Shown: positions 8,154-64,000 of the stretch, in pieces
Position numbering within the stretch: the first letter of the stretch is position 1
Layout of the letters: each line of letters starts with the position of its first letter
Virus record (IMG/VR): IMGVR_UViG_3300005436_000011
Length of the DNA: 64,000 nucleotides
Direction: 5' to 3' (one strand)
Source: an uncultured virus (IMG/VR IMGVR_UViG_3300005436_000011)
Lineage: Duplodnaviria > Heunggongvirae > Uroviricota > Caudoviricetes
Translations under genes and position numbers: made by a program
Notes under the pieces: model-generated
Seen by the model: the letters and a program-made list of their open reading frames with translations, nothing else
Told to the model about the DNA's origin: nothing
The model's database searches: none

Positions 8154-8197
8154 CGCCAGGCTCAGGGGTTTACAAACCTCTGAGCCTGGTGTAGGCT
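8154..8197 (+). promoter_or_regulatory. hairpin-embedded promoter TTTACA-N17-TAGGCT
   Basis: 18-bp inverted repeat 8154-8191 (two G.T pairs) centred on the -35 (8169-8174). Confidence 0.75.
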
Positions 8198-8253
8198 GGT
8201 ACCAGCAGCAAGGAACAAGGAACAAGGAACCAGGAACCGGAAGGACCGAGTCG

Positions 8254-40300: not shown

Positions 40301-40869
40301 CAGCTGTAGTAGTCCGGGTCGGGGCGCTTGAAGAACTTCTTGGCCTTGGCGCGGCGCTCACCGAAGTCCTTGAACCAGGCCTTGTCGCCGCGGTTGGCCT
40401 TGGCTGCCTCCTGCGTGGGCATGATGTCCCACTCGAGGCCCCGGATCTCCGACTTGCGGAGCTGGATGCAGGCGCGGGCCACGGAGTACAGGTCGGCGAG
40501 GGTGCGCAGCGTGCTGAAGCTGGCGAGCTTGAGGCCCTCCGAGCCGGGCGTGCCGACCGGGAGGTTCCAGCCGACGCGGTACTCCTCGCGGCGTGGGTCG
40601 GCCCGACCGCTCGCGGGGTCGGGCTCATCGACGGGAACCGGCAGGATCGGGCTGAACGGCCCGAACGCGCCCTGCGTGAAGGTCGCCGGTGGCCGCGGCA
40701 GGAAGCCGGCGTAGGCGTTGGCGTAGCCGTGCTGCTCCGCGTAGCTGACCACCGCCGGCGACAGGGAGCCGGTGGAGATCCCCGATCCCTGAGGCGCGGG
40801 CGTGGGCCGCGCGCCGCCGGGTGAGTAGCGCGCCGCGCGCAGGATGGATCTAGTCGACGCCACCGGCAA
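37312..40869 (-). CDS. portal protein fused to HiPIP-like, Nudix and ParB-like domains
   Basis: Portal core (YGFPPIE, YFREGTVP, SVDEARDELNLQP), SCGTCVMF...C..V.G.I....C..W, Nudix box GGCLEPGEQPRSAAIREWQEETG, ParB/Srx VVDGHHRALAA. Confidence 0.85.
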   Translation of the reverse strand: MPVASTRSILRAARYSPGGARPTPAPQGSGISTGSLSPAVVSYAEQHGYANAYAGFLPRPPATFTQGAFGPFSPILPVPVDEPDPASGRADPRREEYRVGWNLPVGTPGSEGLKLASFSTLRTLADLYSVARACIQLRKSEIRGLEWDIMPTQEAAKANRGDKAWFKDFGERRAKAKKFFKRPDPDYYSWSTFIDAFLEEVFVFDALSLFLRPKRGRGMGKGLLGSDLDSLNLISGPTIRPLYDMQGGFPAPPAPAYQQYLYGVPRSDFIKMLTDMDIQDGGLRGSQVAQFRGDQLLYVPMVPRRWTPYGFPPIERAMIPVLSGLQKQGYQLDYFREGTVPAVYMSPGDENMTPNQIRELQDALNAFAGDPAWHHKIIVLPPGTKVEPQRGVQLADAFDEIVMTQVCMAFDIMPMELGIAPKVSTSMSPGASHQMAKMAENVGERKATKPTLMFIADIINNILEYVCGQDDMQFVFEGLEAEEDQSLLTDLLIKQVENGLRSVDEARDELNLQPWGLPETSGPVFLSKNGPVPFGMATAAVPGTVPGATPGSPAPTPPGQLALPGVQPKLPVTAAGTGEIQNTGQGSVPTQPTPSPHVETPGHAAATGAGNAPSRSATGKKPTAAPAKVADAAALEKAASSELEALSRHVKKGRQVSSWVPRNVNPDALARISQHMAEGLEVDDAIRVVKATRRVISLNGQESWIDSRVPQAAAGGGGRSPVRHLGDGTEVPGGVPSSTAGGEPPRWVPSQPPNGYMGGFYDGSDHSQAHHPSGGHDDRVPLTHGHQTDVDVQPPRYPSSGTGGWPQGGVGTGRSSVGEPPGDANDRGRAPNVGDLGKRVKVSKESVHYRPAASRARSCGTCVMFHLDTHSCDLVSGSIDLIDVCDRWEGRTATKGACVAAGLAVRAADTGRVLMLQRGLTDDDPAAGSWEFPGGCLEPGEQPRSAAIREWQEETGCVLPVGRFVPGWGTESGRWLGFVYEVDHETDVPIFDGRDRVTNPDDPDGDQVEALAWWDPTHLVDNPSVRAELRADLQLVLNALSRPASEGTRAATADEVAALMSQNFSDEGYAWVDDATWVGPLNVPTSLIDFSNEPRWAAHHEDAAVDRFEAKLRAGEPTHPAILVDTPGDPKLKVVDGHHRALAAQRLGKPLTAYVGRVPTVVGPWDEAHSFQLNHGDDHLNKTTD

Positions 40870-45356: not shown

Positions 45357-46070
<714 letters not shown>

Positions 46071-47245: not shown

Positions 47246-47701
47246 TCAGAAGTTACCGTTCGATACCTGAAGGCAGGGGATCCCGACCACGTTTCGCCAC
47301 AGGTCGACGACCTGGTTGCGGTCGTCGAAAGCGGCGATGACGTTGAACCTGGGCTGGATCAGAACGTAGAAGAGGTGCCGCTTCAGGTCGACATCCCTAG
47401 CGTAGCGCCACTCGTCGGTGTCGGGTCGCAGGTAGAGGCTGTGCTTCACGACCTCACGGCTCAGCCGACCGTGCAGGTGGGCCGTGATGAAGTCGGTGGT
47501 CGCGTCGTGGCAGACGACGTTGCGGCCGGACGCGAACACGAGCTCGTCGCCGACGTCGAGCAGGGCCCGCGCGACGGCGAGCACGGGCTCGTTGGGGAGG
47601 TCCTCGTGGACCCGGTCCCAGTCGTAGGGCCCGCGGCCGCCCGGGGCCCGCAGGGCCAGGGTGCCGTCGACGTCGAACAGCCAGGCTCGCCTTCTCGCCA
47701 C
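47246..47701 (-). CDS. HAD-family polynucleotide 3'-phosphatase (T4 PNKP C-terminal-like)
   Basis: FDVDGTLA, GPYDW..V..DLPN, SGR, K, FDDRNQVVDLWR..GIPCLQV..GNF. Confidence 0.85.
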   Translation of the reverse strand: MARRRAWLFDVDGTLALRAPGGRGPYDWDRVHEDLPNEPVLAVARALLDVGDELVFASGRNVVCHDATTDFITAHLHGRLSREVVKHSLYLRPDTDEWRYARDVDLKRHLFYVLIQPRFNVIAAFDDRNQVVDLWRNVVGIPCLQVSNGNF

Positions 47702-47947
47702 GTGTCTGCTCCGTTTCCTAGATACGACGATGGGGCCGGGTTGACCCGGCCCCACCATCTCTCCGCGCTCACATCCAAGGTGATGAGATTACTGTACCAC
47801 TGATGTATCGCCTCTACCAGCGACTCGCCCGGCGAAGCAGCCAGAGCCAGAAGCCGAGGCGGTGCCGTCGCCGGCGTCGTCGGCGCACCTCAGCCACGAC
47901 CTGGCAGCGCGGGAAGCTGCAGCCACCGGCGCACCAAACGGCGCACC

Positions 47948-49654
47948 TCAGCTCTCCCACGGCCAGCGCCCCGCCTGGCCGGCCTCGAGGGTCAACGGCA
48001 GCCCGAACATGGCGTCGGTCAGGCCGCCAAGCTCGTGACGGTTGCTGCCCGGCGTGACCGGCATCATCGTGTTCTTGTAGCCGGCGAGGTTGAACGCGTA
48101 GATCGGCACGTTCCGCGGGGCAGCCGAGTCGACGTCACCCACCCCGTAGTTTCCCATCGTCTGACAGTCGGTCAGGATGATGACGCGGCTGTGCTCAGGC
48201 CGCAGCGTCTCGCGGACCGCCCTCGCGATCTCGGTGCCGCCGCCGGCGCTCCCCTGGTATCGCTTGAACGTTTCCACCGCCTTGAGCAGGCTCGTGCCTG
48301 GCTCGACACCGGTGACGTGGAACTGCGTGTTCGCGAAGCCCCACGCGTCGACGCCGGCCGGGTTCCGGATCTTCAGGGCGAGCCCGAAGAGCGCGGCCGC
48401 GGTCGAGTAGTCCATCTTGGAGTTTTCGGACAGCTTGCCCCAGGTCATCGACGCGGAGGTGTCGATGAGCACGAGGGTCCGGCCCGGCAGTACGGGCACG
48501 TTCGCCAGGGAGTGGTTCACGGCCTGCTCCAGGGCGTGGCCCCACCGCAGGGACGGGGCCTCGAGGTAGGCGTTGAGGAACCGGAACGGCAGCTGACGGC
48601 TCTTCCGGATCTGCTCCGGGTCGGCGAGCCGCGTCAGGAGCGGTCCGATCACCGAGTCCGGGACGCCGGCCTGGTCGAGGCCGCGCAGGTTGCGCAGCAG
48701 GGCCATGTAGCCGAGCTTGGGCAGCGCGAGCTGCCAGATCTCGGCGTCGGTGACGGCGCGGCCCTCGCTCGGCTTCTCGCCGAGCCACGACTTGAGCCAC
48801 TCCCACTGGCCGACCATCGCCCCGTGGATCAGGTCGAGGGCGACCTGGTCGTCCGCGAGGGCGCGGCGCGCGAGGTCGTGCCGCTCGCTGGGGGTCAGGC
48901 GCGCCATCGCCCACCGGACCCGGACGTGGGTCAGGGACTCGGGCGGCTCCGCCCCGTCGCGGCCGTGCCGGGCGGTGATCGCCCACCGGAACAGGTCGTC
49001 CTGCCAGGTGCGCTCCGCGCCGGGGGTGCGGACGTCGGCGTGGGTCAGCTCGAGGACGTCGCCGAACCGCAGGGCCTTGCCCTCACCGTCGTAGCGCAGG
49101 AACGCGGCCTCGTCGTAGAGGCGCGTGACGGCGTCGGCGACGCCGCGCTTGACCGGCTTCGGCAGCTTGACGACGATCGTGCCGTCGGGGCGGGTGACGC
49201 CGAACCGGTGCCGCCAGTAGGCGAGGAGCTCGCCCGGCTCATCGGGGCGCTGCAGCACCGACGTGACCAGCTCGCGGTTGCCGTCACCGTGCAGGCCGGC
49301 GGTGAGCCGGGCGTGCACGGCCTCCGCGGCGAGCAGGATCGACGCGGTGCGGATGTTGCCCGGGCCGCGCAGCCACGAGAGGAAGACCCGCACCCACGGC
49401 CACGTCTCCTCGTTGACGGCGAGCTGGGCCACGAGCTCCCGCAGGCGCTGCACGTTCTCGTCCGCGGTGTCGTAGAAGCCCCTCTCACCAGCGAACCGCG
49501 AGACCGCCCGCCTGAAGAGCTCGGACTGCGCGTCGCTCTGGAAGCCGGGCGCGCCCTCGTGGGTGAGCCCGTCCGGGGTCGCGCTGAGCGTCCGCAGCGG
49601 GCCGCTCGCGGCCGCGCGCCGCGGTTGGGTCGATGCCTTGTTGAATCCTGCCAC
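47948..49654 (-). CDS. rsr: Ro60/Rsr TROVE-domain RNA-binding protein with vWA domain
   Basis: THEGAPGF, RPDEPGELLAY, LPKPVKRG, YMALLRNLR, SRQLPFRFL, MIDAS DTSASM, ILTDCQ. Confidence 0.93.
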   Translation of the reverse strand: MAGFNKASTQPRRAAASGPLRTLSATPDGLTHEGAPGFQSDAQSELFRRAVSRFAGERGFYDTADENVQRLRELVAQLAVNEETWPWVRVFLSWLRGPGNIRTASILLAAEAVHARLTAGLHGDGNRELVTSVLQRPDEPGELLAYWRHRFGVTRPDGTIVVKLPKPVKRGVADAVTRLYDEAAFLRYDGEGKALRFGDVLELTHADVRTPGAERTWQDDLFRWAITARHGRDGAEPPESLTHVRVRWAMARLTPSERHDLARRALADDQVALDLIHGAMVGQWEWLKSWLGEKPSEGRAVTDAEIWQLALPKLGYMALLRNLRGLDQAGVPDSVIGPLLTRLADPEQIRKSRQLPFRFLNAYLEAPSLRWGHALEQAVNHSLANVPVLPGRTLVLIDTSASMTWGKLSENSKMDYSTAAALFGLALKIRNPAGVDAWGFANTQFHVTGVEPGTSLLKAVETFKRYQGSAGGGTEIARAVRETLRPEHSRVIILTDCQTMGNYGVGDVDSAAPRNVPIYAFNLAGYKNTMMPVTPGSNRHELGGLTDAMFGLPLTLEAGQAGRWPWES

Positions 49655-49683: not shown

Positions 49684-49723
49684 ACGAGGCCCCCACCAGC
49701 CGTTAAGCTGGTGGGGGCCTCGT
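49684..49723 (-). terminator. 17-bp hairpin between the RNA cluster and rsr
   Basis: ACGAGGCCCCCACCAGC / GCTGGTGGGGGCCTCGT perfect inverted repeat. Confidence 0.6.
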
Positions 49724-49765
49724 GGTGGACGGTCTCAACCGCCTGCCTTGTCGGTTGAGACCGAG

Positions 49766-49839
49766 TTGCGGGGACGGGATTTGAACCCGTGACCACTGGG
49801 TTATGAGCCCAGCGCGCTACCGAACTGCGCCACCCCGCT
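49766..49839 (-). tRNA. tRNA-fMet (CAT), initiator-like
   Basis: Cloverleaf, CTCATAA loop, three G-C pairs in anticodon stem, unpaired 1:72. Confidence 0.9.
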
Positions 49840-49842
49840 GCA

Positions 49843-49943
49843 CGTGAGCTGGACCGGGACGAGACCTGAGGTGACGGGCGGCGTCTGTTTGCAACCAATT
49901 TGCGAAGTAGCCGCTCGTCCGCGCACCGTCCCGGCCGCTCACG
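49843..49943 (-). ncRNA. short Y RNA-like gene (Y1)
   Basis: Closing stem + GGTGCG, inner stem, TACTTC, small hairpin, CAGGTCTC, the same scaffold as the longer copies. Confidence 0.7.
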
Positions 49944-49947
49944 AGAT

Positions 49948-50026
49948 CACCACGAGACCTGGGACGACCTGGGGCGACTCTTCAAATTAGCAGTTTGATA
50001 TAGCCCCTGGTCTTTGCACCGTGGCG
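49948..50026 (-). ncRNA. short Y RNA-like gene (Y2) carrying an anticodon stem-loop mimic
   Basis: GGTGCAAAG...CAGGTCTC scaffold; apical TCAAA-CTGCTAA-TTTGA hairpin. Confidence 0.7.
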
Positions 50027-50047
50027 AAGCCTGTGTGTAGTTGTGGG

Positions 50048-50192
50048 TCGACGCGAGACCAGGTGGCTGGCGGCGTGATCCTCGAAATGCTGCCGATTAC
50101 ACCACGTCCCCGAGGGGACGGCGGGATTCGAACCCGCACCTCAACCTAATCAGGGTTGTGTGAAGTAGTCGCTGGCCGTCGCACCGCGTCGA
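50048..50192 (-). ncRNA. YrlA-like Y RNA (Y3) with tRNA-like domain and extra anticodon-like arm
   Basis: GGTGCGA/TACTTC/TGGTCTC scaffold; T arm GCGGG-TTCGAAT-CCCGC, loop-closed acceptor stem, D arm; CAACC-CTGATTA-GGTTG arm. Confidence 0.8.
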
Positions 50193-50199
50193 TGAAGTT

Positions 50200-50285
50200 G
50201 TGGGAACCGACTGACCTGGGTTGCCCCGGCCCATAGGCTATGACCGCCGCGTCTGGTCTCACGCTCGGTTCTAGACGTGAGCCAC
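50200..50285 (-). ncRNA. unclassified structured RNA with predicted pseudoknot
   Basis: CTCACG/CGTGAG hairpin whose loop GAACCGA complements downstream TCGGTTC; GCAA tetraloop hairpin; GTGG/CCAC closure. Confidence 0.45.
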
Positions 50286-50292
50286 GTTGCAT

Positions 50293-50423
50293 CACCTCGA
50301 GACCTGAGCGTCGGTCGGGGTAGCCGCTTGGCCGCTGCGGCGAACGACCGGGGTTGAGACCGGTCGATGGGATTCGAACCCATGATTCTTGTGGAAGTAC
50401 CCGCTCGACTTCGCACCGAGGTG
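50293..50423 (-). ncRNA. YrlA-like Y RNA (Y4)
   Basis: GGTGCGAAG/TACTTC/CAGGTCTC scaffold; T arm ATGGG-TTCGAAT-CCCAT; CGACCGG/CCGGTCG acceptor-like stem; D-like arm. Confidence 0.8.
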
Positions 50424-50430
50424 CCTTGCG

Positions 50431-50505
50431 TGGCTGCCGATGGACTTGAACCACCGACCCCCGCCTTATCAGGGCGGTGCTCTAACCTGTCTGAGCTAGA
50501 CAGCC
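50431..50505 (-). tRNA. tRNA-Ile (GAT)
   Basis: Cloverleaf; CCGCC-CTGATAA-GGCGG anticodon arm. Confidence 0.9.
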
Positions 50506-50509
50506 GTAC

Positions 50510-50607
50510 GGTGAGATCCTACCACCGGGAGGGAGTCGAACCCGCTAGGTTGGTCGCGACACCAACCCGTCGTCCGGACGCGGAGTTGAACCGAGCCGGA
50601 TCTCACC
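50510..50607 (-). ncRNA. unclassified RNA with two T-loop motifs
   Basis: 10-bp closing stem GGTGAGATCC/GGATCTCACC enclosing GG-TTCAACT-CC and GGG-TTCGACT-CCC plus an 8-bp hairpin. Confidence 0.55.
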
Positions 50608-50631
50608 TGAGCGACCTCGCGTAGTCGCCTG

Positions 50632-50703
50632 CGCCGGAGACGGGGATCGAACCCGCGACCTCTCCCTCGACAGGGGAGCGCTCTTCCATTGAGCTACTCT
50701 GGC
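50632..50703 (-). tRNA. tRNA-Asp (GTC)
   Basis: Cloverleaf; CTCCC-CTGTCGA-GGGAG arm; G discriminator. Confidence 0.9.
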
Positions 50704-50707
50704 TTAC

Positions 50708-50778
50708 GTGGTCCTCTGGCCGCTGAGGTACACCCCCTCGAAGTGGAGGTGAGGGGACTCGAACCCCCGACTTCCCAC
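50708..50778 (-). ncRNA. circularly permuted tRNA-Ala-like RNA
   Basis: Order T arm, CACCTCC-A, short linker, GGGGGTG, D arm; G3:U70 pair and A73; no anticodon loop. Confidence 0.65.
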
Positions 50779-50780
50779 CG

Positions 50781-50854
50781 TGACTGCCGCTGGACTCGAA
50801 CCAGCTACCTTCCGAGTTTCAACCGGACGCTCTCCCAGCTTGAGCTAGGCAGCC
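50781..50854 (-). tRNA. tRNA-Phe (GAA)
   Basis: Cloverleaf; TCCGG-TTGAAAC-TCGGA arm. Confidence 0.88.
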
Positions 50855-50856
50855 AA

Positions 50857-50966
50857 GCACACGGTGAACCATCGCCGATCCATCAGCATCGAACGCGATG
50901 TTCGATGCTTTTACCACGGACCAGGGACTCGAGTACTGCCCGTGGTGGGCTGACACCCGTGCGTGC
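50857..50966 (-). ncRNA. unclassified multibranch structured RNA
   Basis: Terminal complementarity plus ACCACGG/CCGTGGT and AGCATCGAAC/GTTCGATGCT stems between two tRNAs. Confidence 0.4.
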
Positions 50967-50975
50967 CTTCCCTTG

Positions 50976-51047
50976 TACCCCACGCCGGGATCGAACCGGC
51001 GCCTTCCGCTTGAGGGGCGGAGGTGACTACCACTACACCAGTGGGGC
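50976..51047 (-). tRNA. tRNA-Glu (CTC) with non-canonical C33
   Basis: Cloverleaf; TCCGC-CCCTCAA-GCGGA arm; body resembles actinobacterial tRNA-Glu. Confidence 0.8.
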
Positions 51048-51053: not shown

Positions 51054-51206
51054 CCTCACCGAGACCATTGAGCCTGCCCTCGGTTTTCTTTCTGACTCTT
51101 GCTCTGCCAAGTTGAGCTACCCCACGACCGAGGTCGAGGGGACGGGACTTGAACCCGCAACCCAGAGTTCCGCTTGAAGTATCCGAGTGCGTTCGCACCG
51201 GTGAGG
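51054..51206 (-). ncRNA. YrlA-like Y RNA (Y5), most canonical copy
   Basis: CCTCACCG closing stem, GGTGCGAA, TACTTC, T arm GCGGG-TTCAAGT-CCCGT, loop-closed acceptor, TAGCTCAACTTGGCAGAGC D arm, TGGTCTC. Confidence 0.85.
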
Positions 51207-52167: not shown

Positions 52168-52406
52168 GGCGCGGGGTCGCGGTCCTGGACTGCGGGCGGA
52201 AGGCCGTGACGGTCACGTCCGCCGGCGGGATCTACGAGGGCACGTGGTCCGGGGCCTTCTCCCGGGCCAAGGCGCTGGACCTGCTCGTGAGCGCCGGTTG
52301 GCGCGAGGCGCCGGGCGAGGACTGGACCGTCTCGCCGGCGGACAACGGCTTCAAGCTCGTGGTCATCCACGACCCGGTGTCCACCGCCGTTCGACGCCGG
52401 CGCTGA
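52164..52406 (+). CDS. hypothetical protein
   Basis: GTGA coupling; followed by a terminator hairpin. Confidence 0.55.
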   Translation: MRRGVAVLDCGRKAVTVTSAGGIYEGTWSGAFSRAKALDLLVSAGWREAPGEDWTVSPADNGFKLVVIHDPVSTAVRRRR

Positions 52407-52409
52407 CGC

Positions 52410-52449
52410 GGAGGGGGCGGTTGAGGTGTTGGCCTCAGCCGCCCCCTCC
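52410..52449. terminator. bidirectional hairpin between convergent units
   Basis: GGAGGGGGCGGTTGAGG / CCTCAGCCGCCCCCTCC. Confidence 0.6.
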
Positions 52450-52572
52450 AGCGCGTCGAGAAGCAGGACGATGATCATCACCGTGAAGGCGAGCAGCATC
52501 ACCAGCGTCCACACCAGGTAACCCACGCCGCTCCGCTCGTTCCAGTTTCCGCGTTAAGGCTAGGGTACCAGG

Positions 52573-53226
52573 TCAGCGATGGCAGAGCGGCAGCAGGTTG
52601 ACGCTGAGCTCGGTGAAGAGGCGGCGACCGAGCTCGCCGTCATCGAGCTCCTCGAGCTGGTCCCACGTCTCGTGGCCGAGCCCTCGGGCGATCGCGTAGG
52701 TCGCCGCGGCGTGGGCGCGCTCGGCGGCGTGCCGCCACTCGAGGTGTGAGCGGCTCTCGTCGAAGGCGGCGTCCCACCGGTTCTCGTCGCCGTCGAACGT
52801 GAACTCGACCTCGTGGCGCTCGTCGATCACCCGAACCGAGCTGTAGCCGTAGCCGCTCAGGGCCCTCTCGTGGTCGGTGGGAACCTCGGTGAACCGGTAG
52901 GGCAGCTGTCGCGGATCTGACGTGGTGGCGCAGACGACGACGAAGGCGACCTCGTTGGATCCGTCCTCCTCAGCCTGGATCGCGACGCAGAGGTAGGGCC
53001 AGCCGTGAAGGCGATCGAGCTGCTTGGTCGGCACGACGGCCTCCACGAGCACGTCGTCGGCCTCGTTGAGGGTGAGCCTCGCGGCGCCGACGAGCTGGTC
53101 GCGCACGTTTCGGAGCGTGACCCGGCCGTCGGCGGGGAGAGCGACGCCGTTGGCGAGGCGGTCGGTTCGGCGCACGTGCTCGCCGCGGATGGCGACGCCG
53201 CGCAGGGTCAGATAGGTATCGGTCAC
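52573..53226 (-). CDS. hypothetical protein
   Basis: Abuts upstream gene; plausible codon usage. Confidence 0.55.
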   Translation of the reverse strand: MTDTYLTLRGVAIRGEHVRRTDRLANGVALPADGRVTLRNVRDQLVGAARLTLNEADDVLVEAVVPTKQLDRLHGWPYLCVAIQAEEDGSNEVAFVVVCATTSDPRQLPYRFTEVPTDHERALSGYGYSSVRVIDERHEVEFTFDGDENRWDAAFDESRSHLEWRHAAERAHAAATYAIARGLGHETWDQLEELDDGELGRRLFTELSVNLLPLCHR

Positions 53227-53227
53227 G

Positions 53228-53644
53228 TCACACCAGCTTCAAGACGATGTCGGCATCGGGGTCGCAGTGGTACGAGGCACAGATCCGGTGGTAGCCGGTG
53301 ACGATGATCGGCAGCCGGCGGACGTTGCCGCGGAGGCAGAGCACGGGCGAGAGCTTGTGGCCGCCCGAAATGCGGACGAGCTCGGCGGTGACGTGGGGAT
53401 CCTCGCGGGGAAGCAGTGGAAGGTCAGCTGCCCTGAGCAGGTCGAGGGGGTGACGCCGGTGCGTGTCAACCTGGGTGCGGAGGTTCTCGACGATGACCGC
53501 GGCGACGTCGTCATCCATCAGCAGGCTGAGGTACATGAACGCCGCGGTGAGCTCCGTCTCGGGAACCTCGGCTCGCCACCGGGCACGGCGCGCGGTGAGG
53601 GGGTCGGGTCGTCGCCTGGCTCCCTTGCTCCCTCGGTCAGCCAC
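53228..53644 (-). CDS. hypothetical protein, degenerate ParB/sulfiredoxin-like fold
   Basis: LSPVL..RG....IIVTGYHRICASYH resembles the DGxHR motif. Confidence 0.55.
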   Translation of the reverse strand: MADRGSKGARRRPDPLTARRARWRAEVPETELTAAFMYLSLLMDDDVAAVIVENLRTQVDTHRRHPLDLLRAADLPLLPREDPHVTAELVRISGGHKLSPVLCLRGNVRRLPIIVTGYHRICASYHCDPDADIVLKLV

Positions 53645-53810
53645 GCTTGCGGACTCCCAGCTCGACGAGGTAGATGATGGCCTGTCGCTCGGTCCAGCCG
53701 CCCTTCACGAGGGACGTGAGGATCTCGTGCATGGCGATCGCGTCCTGCACGAGCTTGGACGCGACCTCACCGTCGAACTCGCCCAGGTCGGGGGTCGGGT
53801 CGTCACTCAC
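53637..53810 (-). CDS. small hypothetical protein
   Basis: AMHEILTSLVKGGWTERQAI motif common in phage proteins; overlaps neighbours. Confidence 0.55.
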   Translation of the reverse strand: MSDDPTPDLGEFDGEVASKLVQDAIAMHEILTSLVKGGWTERQAIIYLVELGVRKRG

Positions 53811-54462
53811 CGGGCACCTCGCCCGTGTGTCGGCGGCGTCCCTTGCCACGGTTGGGGTAGGCCGCGAGCACGTCGGGGTTGAACAGGTCGGCCGCGGTGA
53901 CGTTGAGCAGCTCGCAGGCCCGCACGACGAGGGACTCCGCCGGCAGACAGCCACCGTAGGCCCAGGCGATGTAGTTGCCCTGGTTGAAGTTGTCGACCGG
54001 GAGGTCGAGGGCGTTCGCCTCCTCCGTGAACCGGCGAGCGGTGTAGCCGCGCTCGCGAACGAGATCGCGGATGGGCTGCCAGCCCCACTTGGTGCGGTTG
54101 GGGTTGGGGGTGCGGTGGCCGCCGCGTCGGGGCGTGAGCTCGGTCTCCACCCAGGCAGCGAACCGGGCGCGCTCAGGGTCACCGTCCAGGTCGGCGAGGC
54201 GGCGGACGCCGGCGGCGGTCACGGCGTCGACCTGGGTGAGCTGGAACCGCTCGTAGGTGTCGACCAGGTCTCGCTCCTCGGGGCTGAGGGTGGTGAGCTC
54301 GTCGGGGTGGATCCCGAGGGCGAGGCAGGCGTCCTCGGCGTAGACGAGGACCCGTTCGCTGGGGGTGCCGGGCTCGAGCACGAGGTGCCGCACCGCCATG
54401 AAGCTGAGAGGGTAGTTGAGCACCCGTCGAGTGGGCGCGGGTAAGGCCTTGACGTCATCCAT
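53803..54462 (-). CDS. Bro-N-like antirepressor/regulator with C-terminal HTH
   Basis: AEDACLALG, VTAAGVRRL, ARFAAWV.. Bro-N pattern; CELLNVTAADLF XRE-like tail; divergent promoter region. Confidence 0.65.
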   Translation of the reverse strand: MDDVKALPAPTRRVLNYPLSFMAVRHLVLEPGTPSERVLVYAEDACLALGIHPDELTTLSPEERDLVDTYERFQLTQVDAVTAAGVRRLADLDGDPERARFAAWVETELTPRRGGHRTPNPNRTKWGWQPIRDLVRERGYTARRFTEEANALDLPVDNFNQGNYIAWAYGGCLPAESLVVRACELLNVTAADLFNPDVLAAYPNRGKGRRRHTGEVPGE

Positions 54463-54521
54463 GTTGAAGACTCTACCAGCGGTACGATGTTGATGACAAC
54501 CGAGAACGTTCAGCATTGCTG

Positions 54522-54550
54522 TTTACATCTTAGCCGCGTGGTGATACGGT
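54522..54550 (+). promoter_or_regulatory. SigA-type promoter TTTACA-N17-TACGGT
   Basis: Same family; followed by a GGAAC-repeat leader. Confidence 0.7.
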
Positions 54551-54587
54551 ATCTCCAGGAACGAGGAACCGAGGAGAGGAGCTCCCG

Positions 54588-54962
54588 ATGTCGAAGAGGT
54601 CGGAGCGCAAGCGGCTGCTGAGGGTTCGCCGCGAGCTCGCGGCGGCGACCCGCCACCTGAACCGGATCCACCGCCTGACCGACAGCGGCGAGCCGCAGCC
54701 GGCGCGGGTCTGGCTCGAGCGGGTCGGCCTGGACGAGGACCTCGCGAGGCGCTTCGCGCCCGTGTTCTCCCGCGGCGTCAAGACGAGCGTGACCGGCGAG
54801 ACCGAGATCAAGATCCACGCTCACTCGCGGCTCGGCTACAAGAAGGTGCCGGTGAAGAGGTACCGGCGCGACGAGTTCTTCGCGCAGCTCCCCGTCGCCG
54901 TCTCCCGGATCAAGGACCCGACCGCGAAGCGTGAGTTCGCCCGCGTCGCGGCGATCTACTAG
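54588..54962 (+). CDS. basic hypothetical protein
   Basis: Promoter and GAGGAG RBS upstream. Confidence 0.65.
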   Translation: MSKRSERKRLLRVRRELAAATRHLNRIHRLTDSGEPQPARVWLERVGLDEDLARRFAPVFSRGVKTSVTGETEIKIHAHSRLGYKKVPVKRYRRDEFFAQLPVAVSRIKDPTAKREFARVAAIY

Positions 54963-54981
54963 ATATAAGGAGCGACGAGCC

Positions 54982-55224
54982 GTGAGGATCTTCCACGTCG
55001 ACCGCAGGCTCAGCCGGAGCGACTACGGTTGGACCCGGGGCGCGATCGTCATCGCCCTGAACGAGACCGCGGCCAGGCACCTGGTCGACGGCCTCTCGAT
55101 GTCCAAGCAGTTCAACGACCCGACGGACCTGTGGCTGTCCCCGGAGCACTCCACCGCGCGTGAGCTGGGGGTCGCCCACGGCACCGAGGAGGAGATCGTG
55201 CTGACCGACGAGGAAGAGGGGTAG
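54982..55224 (+). CDS. hypothetical protein
   Basis: AAGGAG RBS, GTG at 54982. Confidence 0.6.
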   Translation: MRIFHVDRRLSRSDYGWTRGAIVIALNETAARHLVDGLSMSKQFNDPTDLWLSPEHSTARELGVAHGTEEEIVLTDEEEG

Positions 55225-55370
55225 AGCCGTGCCGTGGTGCGGACGGTGCCAGCGGGTCATCCAAAACGGGTGCTGCTGTGGGTGTGGCTGCCGGCTCGCG
55301 AGCCCGGACTGGTTCGCGAGCCTCGACGCAGGTACTGTAACAGTTGATGAACTGAGCGAGGGGAGCGAGG

Positions 55371-55847
55371 GTGGGAAGCGACGCGCACGGTGACCTCGTG
55401 TACGGGGTGCCGCTCGGCGGCAGCGACGAGGGTTGGCTCCTGACGGGGCCCAAGGATAAGTGGGGTGACGTCAGCCTCGAGCCGGAGCACCTCCCGTGGC
55501 TGACGCCGGAGCAGGCCGAAGGCTGGGACCACTTCAGCTACAGCGAGGTGCTCGAGCTCGGGCTCAGGCACCTCGACACGGTGATGTTCAGCCTCACCGA
55601 TCAGCCGCTCAGCGCCGGCCTCGAGGTGCACCAGCACGGCTACGAGCTCAGGTCGTTCGCGCTCGCGCTCAAGAAGCCGCAGTTCGGGGCCTCGTGGGGT
55701 GACGCGACCGACGTCGACTGGCTCGCGCTGAGCGAGGTGGCCGGTGACACGCGGATCACGGTTCAGTTCCGCCGAGTTCTTCAGGAGCTCAACCTCGAGC
55801 CCGTGAACCCTCAGCCACGGTGGTTCCTGACCGCCCACTACTTCTAG
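55371..55847 (+). CDS. hypothetical protein
   Basis: MG.DA...LVYG start and PRWFLTAHY end typical of an actinophage hypothetical family. Confidence 0.65.
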   Translation: MGSDAHGDLVYGVPLGGSDEGWLLTGPKDKWGDVSLEPEHLPWLTPEQAEGWDHFSYSEVLELGLRHLDTVMFSLTDQPLSAGLEVHQHGYELRSFALALKKPQFGASWGDATDVDWLALSEVAGDTRITVQFRRVLQELNLEPVNPQPRWFLTAHYF

Positions 55848-55855
55848 GGGTCAAC

Positions 55856-56290
55856 GTGCAGACCTTCCTGCCCGACCCCGACTTCGCGACGTCCGCCGGC
55901 GTCCTCGACCGGCAGCGCCTCGGCAAGCAGCGCGTCGAGACGCTGCAGATCATGACGGCCCTGCTGACCGGCACGGGCTGGGTCAACCACCCCGCCACCA
56001 AGATGTGGCGCGGCCACGAGGTGAAGCTGCTCCACTACCAGGCGGCGATCTGCGACGAGTGGGAGAACCGCGGCTACCAGGACACGTGCTGGGTCAAGAC
56101 GCTCAGCCTGGCTTTCAAGCACGGCATCAAGCCCCTGCAGGTGACCGTCGACCCGTCGTGGCTCGGCGACGAGGCGTTCCACCTCAGCCACCGCTCCAAC
56201 CTGTTTCGCAAGAACCCAGCACATTACGGCGCGTTCTGGCCGGACGTCCCGGCCGACCTGCCGTACGTGTGGCCCGTGAGAGAGGACTGA
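55856..56290 (+). CDS. pyrimidine-dimer DNA glycosylase-like protein (DenV/MSMEG_6728 type)
   Basis: QTFLP.PDF..SA.VLDRQRLGKQRVETLQI, NHPA.KMWRG, SHRSNL.RK.P.HY, LPYVWP. Confidence 0.85.
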   Translation: MQTFLPDPDFATSAGVLDRQRLGKQRVETLQIMTALLTGTGWVNHPATKMWRGHEVKLLHYQAAICDEWENRGYQDTCWVKTLSLAFKHGIKPLQVTVDPSWLGDEAFHLSHRSNLFRKNPAHYGAFWPDVPADLPYVWPVRED

Positions 56291-56291
56291 G

Positions 56292-56558
56292 GTGCCTGGT
56301 CACCGACACCACGCCGTCCGCTACGGCGAGCTTCCCGAGTGGAACCGCCTCGCCAGCCGGGTGAAGACCGGCTACGAGATCCAGGTGGAGCCGCCCGACG
56401 GCGAGTGGCGTCGGGTCAGACGCAAGCAGCGTGACAGCGAGAACGGGGTCGTCCTCTTCACGTTCGAGGACGGCACCCAGCTCCGCGTCGCGGTCACGAC
56501 CAAGATCAAGGCGCGGCGCACGCCGCTCCCCACCGAGGAAGGAACCGAGGAACAGTGA
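56292..56558 (+). CDS. hypothetical protein
   Basis: In operon, coupled to the next gene. Confidence 0.55.
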   Translation: MPGHRHHAVRYGELPEWNRLASRVKTGYEIQVEPPDGEWRRVRRKQRDSENGVVLFTFEDGTQLRVAVTTKIKARRTPLPTEEGTEEQ

Positions 56559-57157
56559 AGCTGACTCACCGGCAGAAGCTGCTGGGCACCCTGGCGGCCG
56601 TGGGCCTGCTGCCCATCGCCCTGATGGGTGACGCCTGCTCCAACAACTCCCAGAGCCAGGCCCAGCAGATCACCGAGCAGTACTCGCAGCACTCGCAGAG
56701 CGCGGTGCCTTACCCGCTGACGCAGATGGACGCCGGCGGCTGGACGGAGCGCACCCTCCTGAAGGAGCACCTGCTCCGCCAGAACGACCCCAACGCGATC
56801 CACTACGTCTACTGGATCGTCCCGATGACCGGCGCCCTGGTCGCGCAGTGGACCGTCAAGGGCATGGTCTTCTCGCCGAACAGCCAGCTGACCAACACGC
56901 AGTCCATCACGTGGTCGAGCAACGGCGGCAGCGGCGTCGTCGACGCGCCCGGCGACAACGGCACGTGGGGCCCCGAGCCGTTCTGCTACGACTTCTTCAC
57001 CACGTCGGGCAACGAGATCCGGCTGCCCTGCAACGGCCTGTCGGCCGTCGAGTCCGACACGCCGATGACCTTCTCTACCCAGCCCGTGATCACCTACGAC
57101 GCGAGCCAGAAGTCGCCGCTCGACAAGGGCGGCCTGTCCAAGATCGGAGGCAAGTGA
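56555..57157 (+). CDS. putative lipoprotein
   Basis: Signal peptide with Cys (LMGDAC); SQLTN and DNGTWG motifs. Confidence 0.7.
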   Translation: MKLTHRQKLLGTLAAVGLLPIALMGDACSNNSQSQAQQITEQYSQHSQSAVPYPLTQMDAGGWTERTLLKEHLLRQNDPNAIHYVYWIVPMTGALVAQWTVKGMVFSPNSQLTNTQSITWSSNGGSGVVDAPGDNGTWGPEPFCYDFFTTSGNEIRLPCNGLSAVESDTPMTFSTQPVITYDASQKSPLDKGGLSKIGGK

Positions 57158-57633
57158 TGGACGACTTCGCGGACCGGCACCCCGTCGCCTACATCCTGAC
57201 GGTGATCTTCTCCGTCATCCTCGTCCTGTTCGTGATCGCCGCGTTCATCATGGGGCTGAGGACCAACTTCAGCTATTGGTGGGGCCAGCAGCAGGCGACC
57301 CAGGACAAGAACTCCGCGGGGAACTTCGAGGCCGCCCAGCGGCAGTTCCTGCAGGACAAGAACGACGTCGACGGCTACGTGCAGAAGATCACCGCCGCGA
57401 GGCAGCAGCTCGCCGACTTCGACAAGGCCCACCCGAGCCTCGCGAGCGAGGACGGCCTCGCGGGCTTGACCGACGCGCAGCAGCGGCAGAGCCTGGCGAC
57501 CAACCTGACCGGCCTGCAGCAGCAGTGCGTGAACGTGGTCAACGACTACAACACGAGCGCGAGGGCGTACCTGACCGCGGACTGGCGGGACGCGAACCTC
57601 CCGGAGCGGCTCGATCCCAACTCCTGCTCCTGA
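57157..57633 (+). CDS. single-TM membrane protein with coiled coil
   Basis: TGATG coupling to the lipoprotein; QCVNVVNDYN...LPERLD C-terminus. Confidence 0.7.
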   Translation: MDDFADRHPVAYILTVIFSVILVLFVIAAFIMGLRTNFSYWWGQQQATQDKNSAGNFEAAQRQFLQDKNDVDGYVQKITAARQQLADFDKAHPSLASEDGLAGLTDAQQRQSLATNLTGLQQQCVNVVNDYNTSARAYLTADWRDANLPERLDPNSCS

Positions 57634-57642
57634 GGCGGCGAC

Positions 57643-57840
57643 ATGAGCATCATCCGCTGGTGCACCAGAACGATCGCTCGACAGGCGGCGAGGATCCGCG
57701 AGGAGCGAGCCCACAACCGACACCTCGTTCAGACGAACGAGAGGTTGGTCAAGCAGAACGACACGCTGCGGCTGAGGTTGATCGACCTCGACGTCGATCC
57801 GGTCAAGGTTCTCGACGAGGAAACCGACGGCGAGGGCTGA
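57643..57840 (+). CDS. small coiled-coil hypothetical protein
   Basis: GAGG RBS; followed by a hairpin. Confidence 0.5.
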   Translation: MSIIRWCTRTIARQAARIREERAHNRHLVQTNERLVKQNDTLRLRLIDLDVDPVKVLDEETDGEG

Positions 57841-57845
57841 GCTAG

Positions 57846-57881
57846 AGCGAGGGGCGGAACCGAGAGGTTCCGCCCCTCGCT
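57846..57881 (+). terminator. intrinsic terminator-like hairpin
   Basis: AGCGAGGGGCGGAACC-GAGA-GGTTCCGCCCCTCGCT. Confidence 0.65.
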
Positions 57882-57948
57882 GTCTGTCTGCAACTTGATG
57901 TGGTATTGTAAACCCCAGTTGCCGTGGAACCAGGAAGGAAGTCGAACC

Positions 57949-59013
57949 GTGAGCGAGACCACGAGGCCGGCGGGGACGACGCCGTTCTACCTCGCCGCAT
58001 TGGCCGGCATGGCCGTGTCCCTGAACACCAGCTGGAACTTCTTCGGGGACGTGCTGGGCGTCACCGACGTCGACCGCTACACCATGTTCTTCGTGCTGGA
58101 GCTCGCCCAGGTCGCCTGCGCCTGGGGCATGCGCGCGTCGATCCGCCGGCACGTCGACGGCGACCACCGGCCGTCACCGGGCCCGGCGCGCTGGGTCGCC
58201 TGGGCCCTCTGCGCCGTCTCCGCCTACATGGCGTGGAGCCTCAGCGGCTTCTGGGTCGGCGTCGCCCGGGTGCTGATCGGCCCCCTGCTCAGCCTGATCA
58301 TGCTTCACCTCGCGCTGGGCATCGAGATCCGCGGCCTTCAGGTGGGCAACGACACCACCCTCGCCCGGGTCGGCCGGGAGCTGCGGGAGCGGCTCCTCTC
58401 CCTGCTCGGGCTCGGTGACGAGGAGCGGGACGCCAAGACGATGTCACGGCTCCGCGCGGAGCGCCGCGCCTTCAAGATCCGCATGACCGCGAGCGGCAAG
58501 CGTCGGCACCGGCGCCGCTTCGTGCAGCAGATCGCGCGGGCCGGCGTGGCGAACGACCCGGAGGCCCTCGAGCGCTTCAACACCGGGATGATGCTGGCCG
58601 CGAACGTGAACAAGCTGTGGGACCAGGAGCGGCCGCTGCCACCCGAGCTGACGGGTGCCACGGACGACGTGCCAGGTGTCATCGACGCCGAGGTCGTGCC
58701 AGATGCCACCACCGAGGTGGCACCAGACAGTGACAGTGACAGTGACAGTGACAGTGACAGTGACAGTGACAGTGACAGTGACACCGAGGTGGCACCTGAC
58801 ACCAAGAGCGTGACACCCAAGGCGGTGCCGCTGACATCCCTCAGCGCCCGGACCCAGGCGGAGGTTGACACCATCCTCGACCTGATGAGCGAGAAGGGTC
58901 TGGACGCGGTCACGATCGAGTACATCATGGAGCACGTTGGCCTGAAGTTCTCCACGGCGGCGCGGCGGCGGCGGGTCGCGGTGGCGCTCTTCGAGGCTCG
59001 ACAGGTGTCGTGA
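57949..59013 (+). CDS. 4-TM membrane protein resembling actinomycete plasmid spread (Spd-like) proteins
   Basis: Four N-terminal TM helices, ELRERLLSLLGL helix, acidic DS repeat, C-terminal HTH-like segment; upstream of the FtsK gene. Confidence 0.6.
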   Translation: MSETTRPAGTTPFYLAALAGMAVSLNTSWNFFGDVLGVTDVDRYTMFFVLELAQVACAWGMRASIRRHVDGDHRPSPGPARWVAWALCAVSAYMAWSLSGFWVGVARVLIGPLLSLIMLHLALGIEIRGLQVGNDTTLARVGRELRERLLSLLGLGDEERDAKTMSRLRAERRAFKIRMTASGKRRHRRRFVQQIARAGVANDPEALERFNTGMMLAANVNKLWDQERPLPPELTGATDDVPGVIDAEVVPDATTEVAPDSDSDSDSDSDSDSDSDSDTEVAPDTKSVTPKAVPLTSLSARTQAEVDTILDLMSEKGLDAVTIEYIMEHVGLKFSTAARRRRVAVALFEARQVS

Positions 59014-59827
59014 CACCCGACACCTGACCTGCCACTGCCACCGGTGCCACGTGCCGGTGGCAGTGGCACGTCTGGCACGCGACCCACGTCACGTCCTCAT
59101 TCATCAGTTGATGTGATACAGTGATACCACCGAGGAGGTGATGACGGTGAGCGAGAGGCTCGAGAGCGACGAGGAGCAGGTGTTCGCGTCGGCGGCACCG
59201 GTGCCTGAGGAAGGCCTGGTGAGCGGGTCGGAGACGCCGGAGAAGGAGACCGACCAGGCCTCCAAGGAGGAGGCCCCCAAGGTCCCGACCGGGGGCAAGG
59301 CCCGCCAGGCCGCGGGGCGACCGACGTGGCACCTGTCCCTGACCCTGGGCCTGGTGATCGCCCTAGCCGGCGGGGTGCTCCTGTGGATGCAGTCGCCGGC
59401 GCTGGCGCTGCTCGTTGGCGGCGCCCTGGTCGTGCTGGTGGGGCTCGCCCTCGCCCTGTGGCACCTCTTCGGGTCCGATGCCACCGGCCGTCGAGCTGCC
59501 AACCGCCGTGCCAACGACGTGGCAGCCCGTGCCACCGGGAACCGTGGCAGTGACACCTCACGGCGGCAGGCAGCTGGCAGTGACACCCGCCGAGGTGCCA
59601 CCTCGCGTGACACCGGTGGCACCTCACGTGCCACCCGTGCCAACCGCCGTGGCACGCGAGACGGTGACACCGATCCGCGAGGTGCCACTCGCCGCCGGCG
59701 ACGTGGCACCGATGACACCCGTGACCCGGCACCGCGTGGCAGGCGACGGGATCGTGCCACCGAGCCCCGTGGCACGGGTGGCACGCCGCGTGACCGAGGC
59801 GGTCAGCCACGGCAGCCGCGTGCCACG
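58637..59827. repeat. dense dispersed TGNCA (GTGGCAC/GTGCCAC/GTGACAC) motif array
   Basis: About 50 copies by hand count across two CDS and the intergenic gap. Confidence 0.8.
58726..58782 (+). repeat. (GACAGT)9.5 in-frame microsatellite encoding a DS repeat
   Basis: Perfect hexamer tandem flanked by the direct repeat ACCGAGGTGGCACC. Confidence 0.95.
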
Positions 59828-60652
59828 CCGCCCGGCGGCGGGCGACCGCAGCAGCCGCGCGGCGTCAAGGACCCGACCGGTGGCCGGCAGCCGGCACCGA
59901 ACGCGGAGCGAAACCCGTACCGCAACCGAAACCGCAACCCGTACTGGAACCGCGACCGTGACCGACCCGGCTTCTGGCGTGAGCGCACCTGCGTCAATGG
60001 CGGCCGCCCACCGATCACCAAGGTGCCGAAGGCTGAGGACGCCGCGGCCGACGAGGGAAAGAGGCCGGTGAGGTTGAAGCCACTTCGCTGGCGAAGCCGT
60101 CGAGGGAAGCTGCCGGTCCCGCAGGAGCCGAGGCCGGCTCGAGCCAAGGTGACCAAGCCGCCGCGGGAGCCGAGGCGTCCCAACGAGACCAGCGTGGAGT
60201 GGCCGAACGTGGATCAGGACCACTACGAGCCGGTGATCGCGAGCAAGCTGCCGCGCATCACCCACGCGAGGCGAGCGGTCAAGCTGCCGCCCATCTACCA
60301 CCGCAAGGGTGAGCCCCAGTGGCCCACCGACGACGAGGACCAGCGGGGACCCACCGTCCCCCCGCAGCGAGACAGGAGAGGCACCGTGGTAACCCCTGAT
60401 CAGATGACCCGGGCCGACTGGGAGGCCCACTGCAGCCGGGCGGCCAACCTGGCTACCAAGGCGGCTCAGGCGAAGGACGAGCTGGCCACGAGGGCCCTCC
60501 AGGAGGCTCAGCTCCTGGACGGCATGGATGACCCGGAGATGCGGGAGGCGCAGGCCAACCACCTCCACGCGGCCTCCCGGGCGGCCCTCGACGGCGAGGT
60601 TCGCCGTCACAAGGCCGCGATCTGGAGCTCCCTGGGCCAGAATCCCGTGTAG
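59138..60652 (+). CDS. 2-TM, Arg/Pro-rich low-complexity protein of the transfer module
   Basis: GAGGAGG RBS; TM pair; possible in-frame internal start near 60386 after AGGAGAGG. Confidence 0.6.
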   Translation: MMTVSERLESDEEQVFASAAPVPEEGLVSGSETPEKETDQASKEEAPKVPTGGKARQAAGRPTWHLSLTLGLVIALAGGVLLWMQSPALALLVGGALVVLVGLALALWHLFGSDATGRRAANRRANDVAARATGNRGSDTSRRQAAGSDTRRGATSRDTGGTSRATRANRRGTRDGDTDPRGATRRRRRGTDDTRDPAPRGRRRDRATEPRGTGGTPRDRGGQPRQPRATPPGGGRPQQPRGVKDPTGGRQPAPNAERNPYRNRNRNPYWNRDRDRPGFWRERTCVNGGRPPITKVPKAEDAAADEGKRPVRLKPLRWRSRRGKLPVPQEPRPARAKVTKPPREPRRPNETSVEWPNVDQDHYEPVIASKLPRITHARRAVKLPPIYHRKGEPQWPTDDEDQRGPTVPPQRDRRGTVVTPDQMTRADWEAHCSRAANLATKAAQAKDELATRALQEAQLLDGMDDPEMREAQANHLHAASRAALDGEVRRHKAAIWSSLGQNPV

Positions 60653-60729
60653 GATTGAGGCGAGCGGCATCTCGACCCCCGACCGGAATGGTCGGGGGTC
60701 GAGGTCGCTCTACGGAAAGAGGAAAAAAG

Positions 60730-62907: not shown

Positions 62908-62916
62908 GAGCACACG

Positions 62917-63009
62917 GTGCATGTGTCATATGCACCCGACAGGTACCCCCTGACCGGGGCATGCAGGGGGCTCAGGGGGTGCGTGTCATATGTCATATGA
63001 CACATGACA
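62917..63009. repeat. TGTCATATG palindromic repeats after the translocase gene (candidate clt-like site)
   Basis: GTGTCATATGCAC and GTGTCATATGTCATATGACACATGACA in an AT-richer intergenic patch. Confidence 0.5.
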
Positions 63010-63050
63010 GCTACCGAGAGTAACATCACACCGAGCTAGGGAGACCAACC

Positions 63051-63809
63051 GTGTGCCTCGGGCGCACCCACGTTCTCGGCGGCGTCGCGGGCGGCTTCGC
63101 CGTCGCCGACGCCTACTCCGCCCTCGTGCGGCAGCTGCCGCTGACGGTGAGCCTCGCCTGCGCCGCCGTGGCTGGCGGGGCGGCCCTGCTCAACGACCTC
63201 GACACGCCCTCATCCACCGCGTCCCACTCCCTGGGGCGGCTCAGCCAGGGGGCGGCGCGGGGTGTCCAGTGGCTGGCTCAGGTCGCGTTTGAGGCGACCG
63301 CGACGCCGGCCGACGCGCGGTACGGGTCACCGGTCCACCGAAGCCTCACCCACACCGGGGTCGCGGCCGTCGCGGTGGGAGCCGGCACGTGGCAGCTCGC
63401 GCGGCTGGGCTGGGGCGTGACGCTGGCCGTGACCCTGCTGACGACGTTCCTCGCCCTTCGGGCGCTGACGAGTCAGCGGGGCGTGGGGTCGGTGGCCGCG
63501 ACGCTTCTCGGCGGCGGCGCGATCACCCTCGCGGCGCCGACCCCGGTCATCGTGGGGCTCGCGGTCACCGCGGGGCTGCTGAGCCACGACGTTCTCGACG
63601 GCTGCACGACGATGGGGGTGCCGTTCTGGTGGCCCCTGCGGATCCGCGGGATGCGGTGGCGGCGGGTCGGCCTGCCGCGCTTCCTGCGCTTTCACACCGG
63701 CGCGAGAGCGGAGGCGTGGTTCACGATACTGGTGAGCGCGGCTGGCGTCGCTCTGCTGCCGCCGGTTCTCGCGGTTACGGTGAGCTTGGCGCACGTCTAC
63801 CTACGGTAA
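63051..63809 (+). CDS. membrane-bound metal-dependent hydrolase (YdjM/DUF457-like)
   Basis: TH, LLNDLD, HRSLTH, SHDVLDGCT..GVP motifs with TM helices. Confidence 0.85.
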   Translation: MCLGRTHVLGGVAGGFAVADAYSALVRQLPLTVSLACAAVAGGAALLNDLDTPSSTASHSLGRLSQGAARGVQWLAQVAFEATATPADARYGSPVHRSLTHTGVAAVAVGAGTWQLARLGWGVTLAVTLLTTFLALRALTSQRGVGSVAATLLGGGAITLAAPTPVIVGLAVTAGLLSHDVLDGCTTMGVPFWWPLRIRGMRWRRVGLPRFLRFHTGARAEAWFTILVSAAGVALLPPVLAVTVSLAHVYLR

Positions 63810-64000
63810 ACGAGCTGAGGTATGCTGCGAGCTGAGAGCTGAGCCCGCCGAGCGAGGAGCTGAGAGCCGTGCCTCACAAGCGAGCCAAGGAGATCAAGGT
63901 GGATGACATCGTGTGGGGATCCGCCGGCTGGTGGCGCGTGACCAAGATCTACCAGAACTTCGGTGGCCGACCCGGCGAGTACGCCTTCGACACCGAACAC

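Follow-up and report, generated by a model that had tools for sequence, protein, structure and literature searches.

Y2 and Y3, two RNA units predicted in the genome of an uncultured caudoviricete soil virus, display a tRNA-like anticodon arm on the handle of Y RNAs, and such anticodon-arm mimicry is real and general among phage and bacterial units of this kind. Both are predicted from sequence to be Ro60-bound Y RNAs, probably serving as bait for host enzymes that attack the anticodon loop of tRNAs, a combined assignment to which we give slightly less than an even chance. The window, i.e. the whole analysed stretch of 64,000 nucleotides, is part of a virus record of 75,227 bases (67% complete according to CheckV) which has a G+C content of about 69% and encodes a terminase.

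Organization of the Ro60/Y-RNA locus

The region at 49.7-51.3 kb is non-coding and carries, on the minus strand, five tRNA genes and five Y-RNA-like units; the latter are all located upstream of the phage Ro60 gene on the same strand and have the handle GGUGC..YUAY..payload..GGUCUC in common. The features of the locus, all on the minus strand, are:

47246..47758, minus strand, PNKP-type HAD phosphatase gene directly downstream of Ro60 (PF25109, 125.5 bits; phrog_505)
47948..49654, minus strand, Ro60/Rsr (TROVE) gene of 568 amino acids (PF05731, 49.7 bits; phrog_850), predicted partner of the units
49765..51047, minus strand, five true tRNA genes (Met-CAT, Ile-GAT, Asp-GTC, Phe-GAA, Glu-CTC), interleaved with the units
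49845..49940, minus strand, Y1, short unit with a D-loop-like hairpin (AAUUGG) as tip and no anticodon arm (fold z -3.54)
49948..50024, minus strand, Y2, short Y-RNA-like unit composed of handle and bare anticodon arm (repeat families D3 and D7; fold)
49982..49998, minus strand, anticodon-arm mimic of Y2, UCAAA-CUGCUAA-UUUGA, Ser-GCU type with U36-A37-A38
50050..50192, minus strand, Y3, composed of handle, anticodon arm, spacer, T arm, closed acceptor hairpin and weak D arm
50142..50158, minus strand, anticodon-arm mimic of Y3, CAACC-CUGAUUA-GGUUG, Ile-GAU type with U37
50121-50137, minus strand, T arm of Y3, separated from the anticodon arm by a 4-nt spacer
50105-50120, minus strand, acceptor hairpin of Y3, 6-7 bp, closed by a tiny loop
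50087-50102, minus strand, weak D arm of Y3
50293..50423, minus strand, Y4, with handle, T arm, acceptor hairpin and D-like arm, without anticodon arm
51054..51206, minus strand, Y5, YrlA-like unit of canonical build, lacking an anticodon arm (RF02553, 37.8 bits, E 3e-6, below the Rfam gathering score of 69)

The encoded Ro60 is 35-39% identical to Ro-like proteins of actinophages and resembles most closely those of actinophages and Streptosporangiales. Y2 and Y3 lie upstream of the TROVE gene, on the same strand and at a distance of 0.3-0.55 kb, the distance used to recognize Y RNAs being <4 kb. The 5' and 3' ends of the units pair into a stem with internal loops, the outer stems differing between units. 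The 5' motif GNCGAAN0-1G reads GGUGCGAC in Y3 and GGUGCAAAG in Y2, both related but inexact, and the published M. smegmatis member deviates as well; the handle of Y2 is also deviant (GGUGCA, CUAUAUC). Contigs of three rhizosphere RNA runs span Y3 (49980-50352, 50031-50416 and 50015-50394, with 0, 4 and 1 other letters), but the control region 52200-64000 is likewise covered and DNA carry-over is possible.

Further RNA elements are found in and next to the array. Two strong hairpins (49684-49723 and 49730-49763, minus strand) lie between tRNA-Met and the start of Ro60; their positions are kept and their sequences replaced in three relative loci (L002, L004, L006). Between tRNA-Phe and tRNA-Asp, a permuted tRNA-like element without Ro handle (50704-50780, minus strand; about 2900-2972 in L006; YrlA score 25.5 bits) contains T arm, closed acceptor and D arm, and its ends pair as an open anticodon stem. 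A conserved RNA without Rfam match (50510-50612, minus strand; L004 2850-2975; L006 3068-3195) carries two T-loop-like motifs inside one long stem, and a multi-hairpin RNA following tRNA-Glu (50856-50966, minus strand, z -3.3; L004 3046-3165; L006 2604-2720) is loosely conserved in the relatives and also has no Rfam match. Elsewhere in the window, further phage genes with recognized domains are located at 7945-9126 (plus), 37315-40869 (minus), 45357-46049 (minus) and 55820-56290 (plus), the domains being ADP-ribosyltransferase, portal-NUDIX fusion, LysM-transglycosylase and pyrimidine-dimer glycosylase.

Architecture of Y2 and Y3

The sequence-only reading had described the payload of Y2 as nothing but a 5-bp stem with the loop CUGCUAA in the pattern of tRNA-Ser(GCU), and folding bears this out: the hairpin is part of the minimum-energy fold (z -2.78) with pair probabilities of 0.79-0.97, and it constitutes the entire tip, without T or D arm. 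As Y2 thus lacks the arm order of YrlA, it is not filed as YrlA, and it has no match to RF02553.

For Y3, all four tRNA arms had been claimed in permuted order. Anticodon arm, spacer, T arm and acceptor hairpin stand, while the D stem as drawn has a pair probability of 0.0. The pair probabilities of the anticodon stem are only 0.42-0.79, which makes this arm less certain on energetic grounds, the four-arm fold has -50.0 vs -54.6 kcal/mol, and the entire unit has no advantage in folding over shuffled sequences (z -0.45). The imperfection noted earlier, a pyrimidine at position 37, is present as U37 of the loop CUGAUUA. Y3 follows the YrlA order of T arm, closed acceptor hairpin and (weak) D arm after YUAY, and yields a partial match to RF02553 (21.9 bits, model positions 30-81, gathering score 69); in contrast to the definition of YrlA as devoid of an anticodon loop and as having the Ro stem where a tRNA has its anticodon stem, it possesses a separate 5-bp/7-nt arm at tRNA spacing. 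Its score against the tRNA model RF00005 is 23.7 bits, below the threshold of 29, ARAGORN makes no call, and the permuted arm order is unlike the tRNA cloverleaf with its D-anticodon-T order and open acceptor end. The arm itself is 74% like that of the neighbouring tRNA-Ile of the phage (repeat family D12).

On the two strands of the window together, 16 fully paired 5-bp stems enclose a Y32-U33..A38 loop: three are tRNAs, one is the antisense of a tRNA, two are Y2 and Y3, and ten lie elsewhere outside the array. Given these ten, about 0.01 would be expected by chance in the roughly 150 candidate positions of the five units, and the two observed are therefore far above chance.

Anticodon arms across viral and bacterial Y-RNA units

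Related units were collected by pattern scans which left the loop unspecified. The viral sample comprises 124 of about 330 loci (80 with Ro60) and the genome sample 122 of about 2100 loci (74 with Ro60), mostly from Streptomyces and other actinobacteria; eight annotated phages were added. Only units with Ro60 on their own strand, or accompanied by a second handle, were retained, and identical ones were dropped. A first viral scan on the handle only gave 77 loci that were mostly chance matches, 12 of them with a Ro60 tblastn match. With an arm defined by at least 4/5 pairs and Y32-U33-R37, it was found in 101/297 viral units (12.3 +/- 3.6 in shuffles) and in 88/207 bacterial units (7.9 +/- 3.0). 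Among perfect stems of viral units, 7 is the only loop length clearly enriched (83 vs 21).

The signal persists when the selection is relaxed on either side. Without loop filter, a 7-nt loop on a perfect stem is seen in 136/504 units; C32 occurs in 118 of these hairpins, U33 in 120, a purine at position 37 in 115 and A38 in 117. Without stem filter, at least 4/5 positions pair in 124/156 loop-selected units. In the loop-only selection the two closing pairs covary, being formed in 83% as compared with 44% for shuffled partners. The arm is separated from the T stem by 4-5 nt in 93/109 units. In a second viral sample chosen on the 3' end of the handle, 8/41 short units and 16/33 T-arm units bear the arm, with null expectations below 0.5. 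The pooled counts, which refer to sequences and not to independent events, amount to 123/370 viral units with 38 anticodons and 85/207 bacterial units with 30 anticodons, shuffles giving about 1-4%; about two thirds of units have no anticodon arm. The RNAs are common on bacterial chromosomes. A chance hairpin and a degenerate tRNA pseudogene were both considered as origins of the arm and are ruled out by enrichment over shuffles and covariation.

Details of the loops follow those of tRNAs. G36 and G37 are coupled (21/21 vs 1/102 in viral units, 10/12 in bacterial ones), and U32 accompanies Pro and Ala anticodons in 11/14 viral cases vs 9/109. Imperfect loops are frequent: position 37 is a pyrimidine in 15/123 viral and 9/85 bacterial arm units; A34 occurs in 12/123 and 1/85, respectively. 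Ser-GCU, the type of Y2, is the commonest viral mimic (21/123, partly from related contigs). Bare arms without T or D arm recur in 39/194 units vs 2.1 in shuffles, and such units cannot be charged. The displayed anticodons are not linked to the tRNA genes of the same locus (1/22 matches vs 1.8 when shuffled); within a locus they differ in 44/44 cases, a weak result, since the 66 loci, some of them duplicates in part, would be expected to show no more than about 4 repeats.

A second tRNA part recurs as payload of short units, namely the D-loop-like tip (AAUUGG or ACUGG), found in 14/195 vs 0.6 in shuffles; examples are the tip of Y1 (49891-49903, minus strand) and units of L009, L012, L014, L015 and L191. 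The survey also corrects existing annotation: because 66/363 ARAGORN calls in the examined loci overlap a Y-RNA handle, part of the tRNAs listed for phages and Streptomyces are something other than tRNAs. Annotated tRNAs overlapping Y-RNA handles are situated at L009 3638-3709, L012 3769-3843, L013 3745-3835 and L014 3774-3847; the phages with such annotations are VanLee, GiJojo, Frankenweenie and LuckySocke, and the annotated genes look like miscalled Y RNAs.

Fixed frame and switching anticodon

Seven relative loci were available from IMG/VR, of which two are identical to the window, four contain variant arrays and one lacks upstream DNA. The Y2 loop reads CUCUUAA (Lys) in L004 and L005 and CUGUUAA (Asn) in L006. 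In L002, the nearest relative (Ro60 94% identical), it is CACCAAU, the 7-nt geometry being kept and U33 and A38 lost. In Y3, the stem is kept among the close relatives and the anticodon GAU is replaced by CGU, UGU or CGC; a pattern search for more Y3 orthologues returned the same few phages only. A distant virus locus (L098) shares the 17-nt hairpin of Y2 exactly.

A larger set is provided by a chromosomal unit present in 68/251 Streptomyces genomes searched. Its loop has 7 nt, U33 and A38 in 68/68 cases and U36 in 66/68, A37-A38 is mostly intact, and compensatory swaps occur at 30-40 and 31-39. By hand count the anticodon is CAU in 33, GAU in 16, CUU in 10, GUU in 4 and UCU in 2 genomes, with UUU, CAA and CCA once each, eight in all. 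Loop length, U33 and A38 are thus conserved in homologues with a variable anticodon, as the 5-bp/7-nt geometry and U33 put forward for checking in the sequence-only reading would have it.

Mapped onto a tree of Ro60 from 47 loci, out of 53 distinct ones collected, the anticodon has changed at least 26 times, while positions 32, 33 and 38 have not changed at all. Position 34 changed 14 and position 35 17 times, compared with a mean of 8.5 for four-fold sites (n=80), of which 11/80 reach 14 and 4/80 reach 17 changes; the rates at 34 and 35 are hence high and inside that range. These counts place the frame under purifying selection and the turnover of the anticodon at or above the synonymous rate. 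Position 35 is A or U in 41/47 and position 36 is U in 44/47 loci; G or C makes up 93% of four-fold sites, yet the turnover is confined to a set rich in A/U and with U36. Diversifying selection may act on the anticodon. As to gene context, PhoX genes (16/53 loci) and TerD genes (14/53) are frequent neighbours of the bacterial rsr arrays (L217-L296); the two largest neighbour clusters after Ro60 have no Pfam match and may be shadow frames.

Functional implications

One shared handle carries interchangeable tRNA parts, and its anticodon-arm form keeps the 5-bp/7-nt frame, C32, U33, A38 and the 36-37 coupling, while 34 and 35 change often. In the bait scenario, the array would be transcribed together with the tRNAs and cut into units, each handle being bound and stabilized by the phage Ro60, as known Y-RNA biology would lead one to expect. 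A tRNA-attacking enzyme might then bind the displayed loop and be titrated or held on the Ro60 ring, whereby the real tRNAs would be spared. Switching of the anticodon would track changing enzyme specificities, and loops with a pyrimidine at position 37, such as that of Y3, would lack the modification and might be cut poorly. Enrichment and tRNA-like rules of the arm, the recurrence of bare arms and the switching of the anticodon speak for a bait, as do the tRNA array and the PNKP-type phosphatase of the locus, and competitive inhibition of an anticodon nuclease by YrlA was already raised by Hughes 2020. On the other side, tRNA-Ser(GCU) is untargeted by the known mycobacterial nucleases according to Van den Berg 2023 (PMC10264068), which counts against Y2 as their bait, and AriB requires contacts outside the anticodon arm which are absent from a bare arm. 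The Y2 loop is broken in L002, the rates at 34 and 35 do not leave the four-fold-site range, and the large share of units without arm likewise counts against a bait, as do the common chromosomal copies, for which a decoy role must also account. A catalytic nuclease is, moreover, hard to titrate. RtcB and Rnl2-type ligases were not found in the window phage and three relatives (4 records), which is also counted against a bait; a search of the same 4 records for Rnl1 gave no match, nor any match for its control.

Alternatively, the displayed arm might tether a housekeeping anticodon reader to Ro60, by analogy with the Y RNA that ties PNPase to Rsr in Deinococcus; candidates would be the t6A or m1G37 enzymes, an aminoacyl-tRNA synthetase, a repair enzyme or the ribosome. 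We consider this unlikely. Tethering is the one shown function of Y RNAs, U36-A37-A38 and G36-G37 are motifs of modification enzymes and as such would fit the nearly constant U36, the mostly intact A37-A38 and the G36-G37 coupling, and the same handle displays other parts of a tRNA (elbow only, or the D-loop-like tip). But it is not obvious why a host partner that is conserved should favour an anticodon that switches often, or 38 viral anticodons, and the pyrimidines at position 37 also disagree with it. Quite improbable in our view is a relic or structural cap, in which Y RNAs would stem from tRNA dimers and preserve the anticodon arm of the first partner only for its stability as a U-turn hairpin. 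An origin of Y RNAs from tRNA dimers is proposed in Wang 2018 (10.1101/312249) and would agree with the likeness between the arm of Y3 and that of tRNA-Ile, with rates at 34 and 35 within the synonymous range and with the broken loop in L002; the A/U preference at 35 and 36 against G- or C-rich four-fold sites, the near absence of A34 in bacteria, the invariant loop length and the recurrence of bare arms argue against a mere cap.

More doubtful again is a tripwire, in which an incoming anticodon nuclease would cut the loop and a cyclic-phosphate end or the released Ro60 would start a repair or stress response. It would suit the common chromosomal copies and the RtcR of an rsr operon, whose activators are tRNA halves carrying a cyclic phosphate, but RtcB was not found among the 21 neighbour clusters scanned, an alarm is of little obvious use to a phage, and the Salmonella YrlA, which is without loop, is not cut. 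The least probable of these alternatives is a reserve two-piece tRNA, generated when RNase P opens the acceptor hairpin and CCA is added, such that the Y3 type would decode. The M. smegmatis YrlA, which has a UCU-type loop, is indeed cut by RNase P and gains CA (Chen 2014, PMC4201824), a 6-7 bp acceptor-like hairpin is present in 105/125 arm-bearing units, and base 73 fits a table of discriminator bases in 42/103 units vs 30. The discriminator signal is, however, gone in viral units (11/48 vs 10), the hairpin has loops of 0-12 nt and occurs also in 111/186 arm-less units, Y3 carries U37 and U73, and Y2 has no acceptor stem.

Returning to the bait function, a wider proposal is held with more reserve and is, as a whole, rather unlikely: the Ro60/Y-RNA arrays of actinobacteria and their phages might form a modular, fast-changing library of tRNA-part baits, i.e. 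an RNA-based antitoxin and counter-defence system. Single substitutions would adapt the anticodon-arm units to the toxins that attack tRNAs, phage and host would both use the system, and it would represent the role long sought for YrlA's tRNA-like domain. Reading the 'variable arm' as a switchable anticodon arm names anticodon readers as a class of partner. What YrlA's tRNA-like domain does can thereby be tested by a single-base change, at U33 or by swapping the anticodon, in an organism that is tractable and in which Rsr binding has already been shown. If the bait role is true, it would be a new kind of RNA counter-defence.

Relation to known Y RNAs and phage tRNAs

The literature searched contains no description of anticodon-arm Y RNAs. 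The view that YrlA RNAs lack an anticodon loop, adopted in the sequence-only reading, is indeed stated in the papers, e.g. in Wang 2018 (10.1101/312249), where the duplexes are taken for variable loops of class II. The seed alignment published for YrlA, however, contains the same kind of hairpin under the name 'V'. Its loop is CUUCUAA for M. smegmatis and likewise for Streptosporangium, CUCAUAA for Gordonia and AUUGAAA for phage ET08, and short complementary stems flank every one of them; the searched supplements of its source do not use the word "anticodon". The hairpins were therefore already in the published alignment, the anticodon-arm reading appears to be new, and the class has been mis-described rather than unknown.

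With YrlA (RF02553; PMC4201824; 10.1101/312249) the units share the location beside Ro60 on the same strand, the terminal stem, YUAY, the T arm before the D arm and the closed acceptor hairpin, and with the four seed members just named also the hairpin upstream of the T arm. They depart from the account in the YrlA papers in that the hairpin is there a variable arm, Y3 scores far below the Rfam cut-off and Y2 has no T or D arm. Like Y2, the short Y RNAs YrlB and Yrn2 belong to the same array and consist of a long hairpin that ends in a small tip, but their tip is described as a small pyrimidine-rich loop and that of Y2 is a canonical anticodon arm. Yrn1 of D. radiodurans has been modelled with a 5-bp 'anticodon arm' as well, but differs by its 6-nt loop, the D-to-T order as in tRNA and its separate lineage. 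The Thermus phage phiLo provides a parallel of a phage Ro60 binding adjacent Y-like RNAs (Yrl1 and Yrl2; PMC12135203); capture of PNPase is proposed there, and the word "anticodon" is absent from the main text. Finally, phage counter-defence tRNAs (PMC10264068; PARIS, PMC12409363) are part of the same conflict over the anticodon loop and are encoded in the same arrays, but they are working, cut-resistant tRNAs, whereas Y2 and Y3 present bare or permuted arms on a Ro60 handle.
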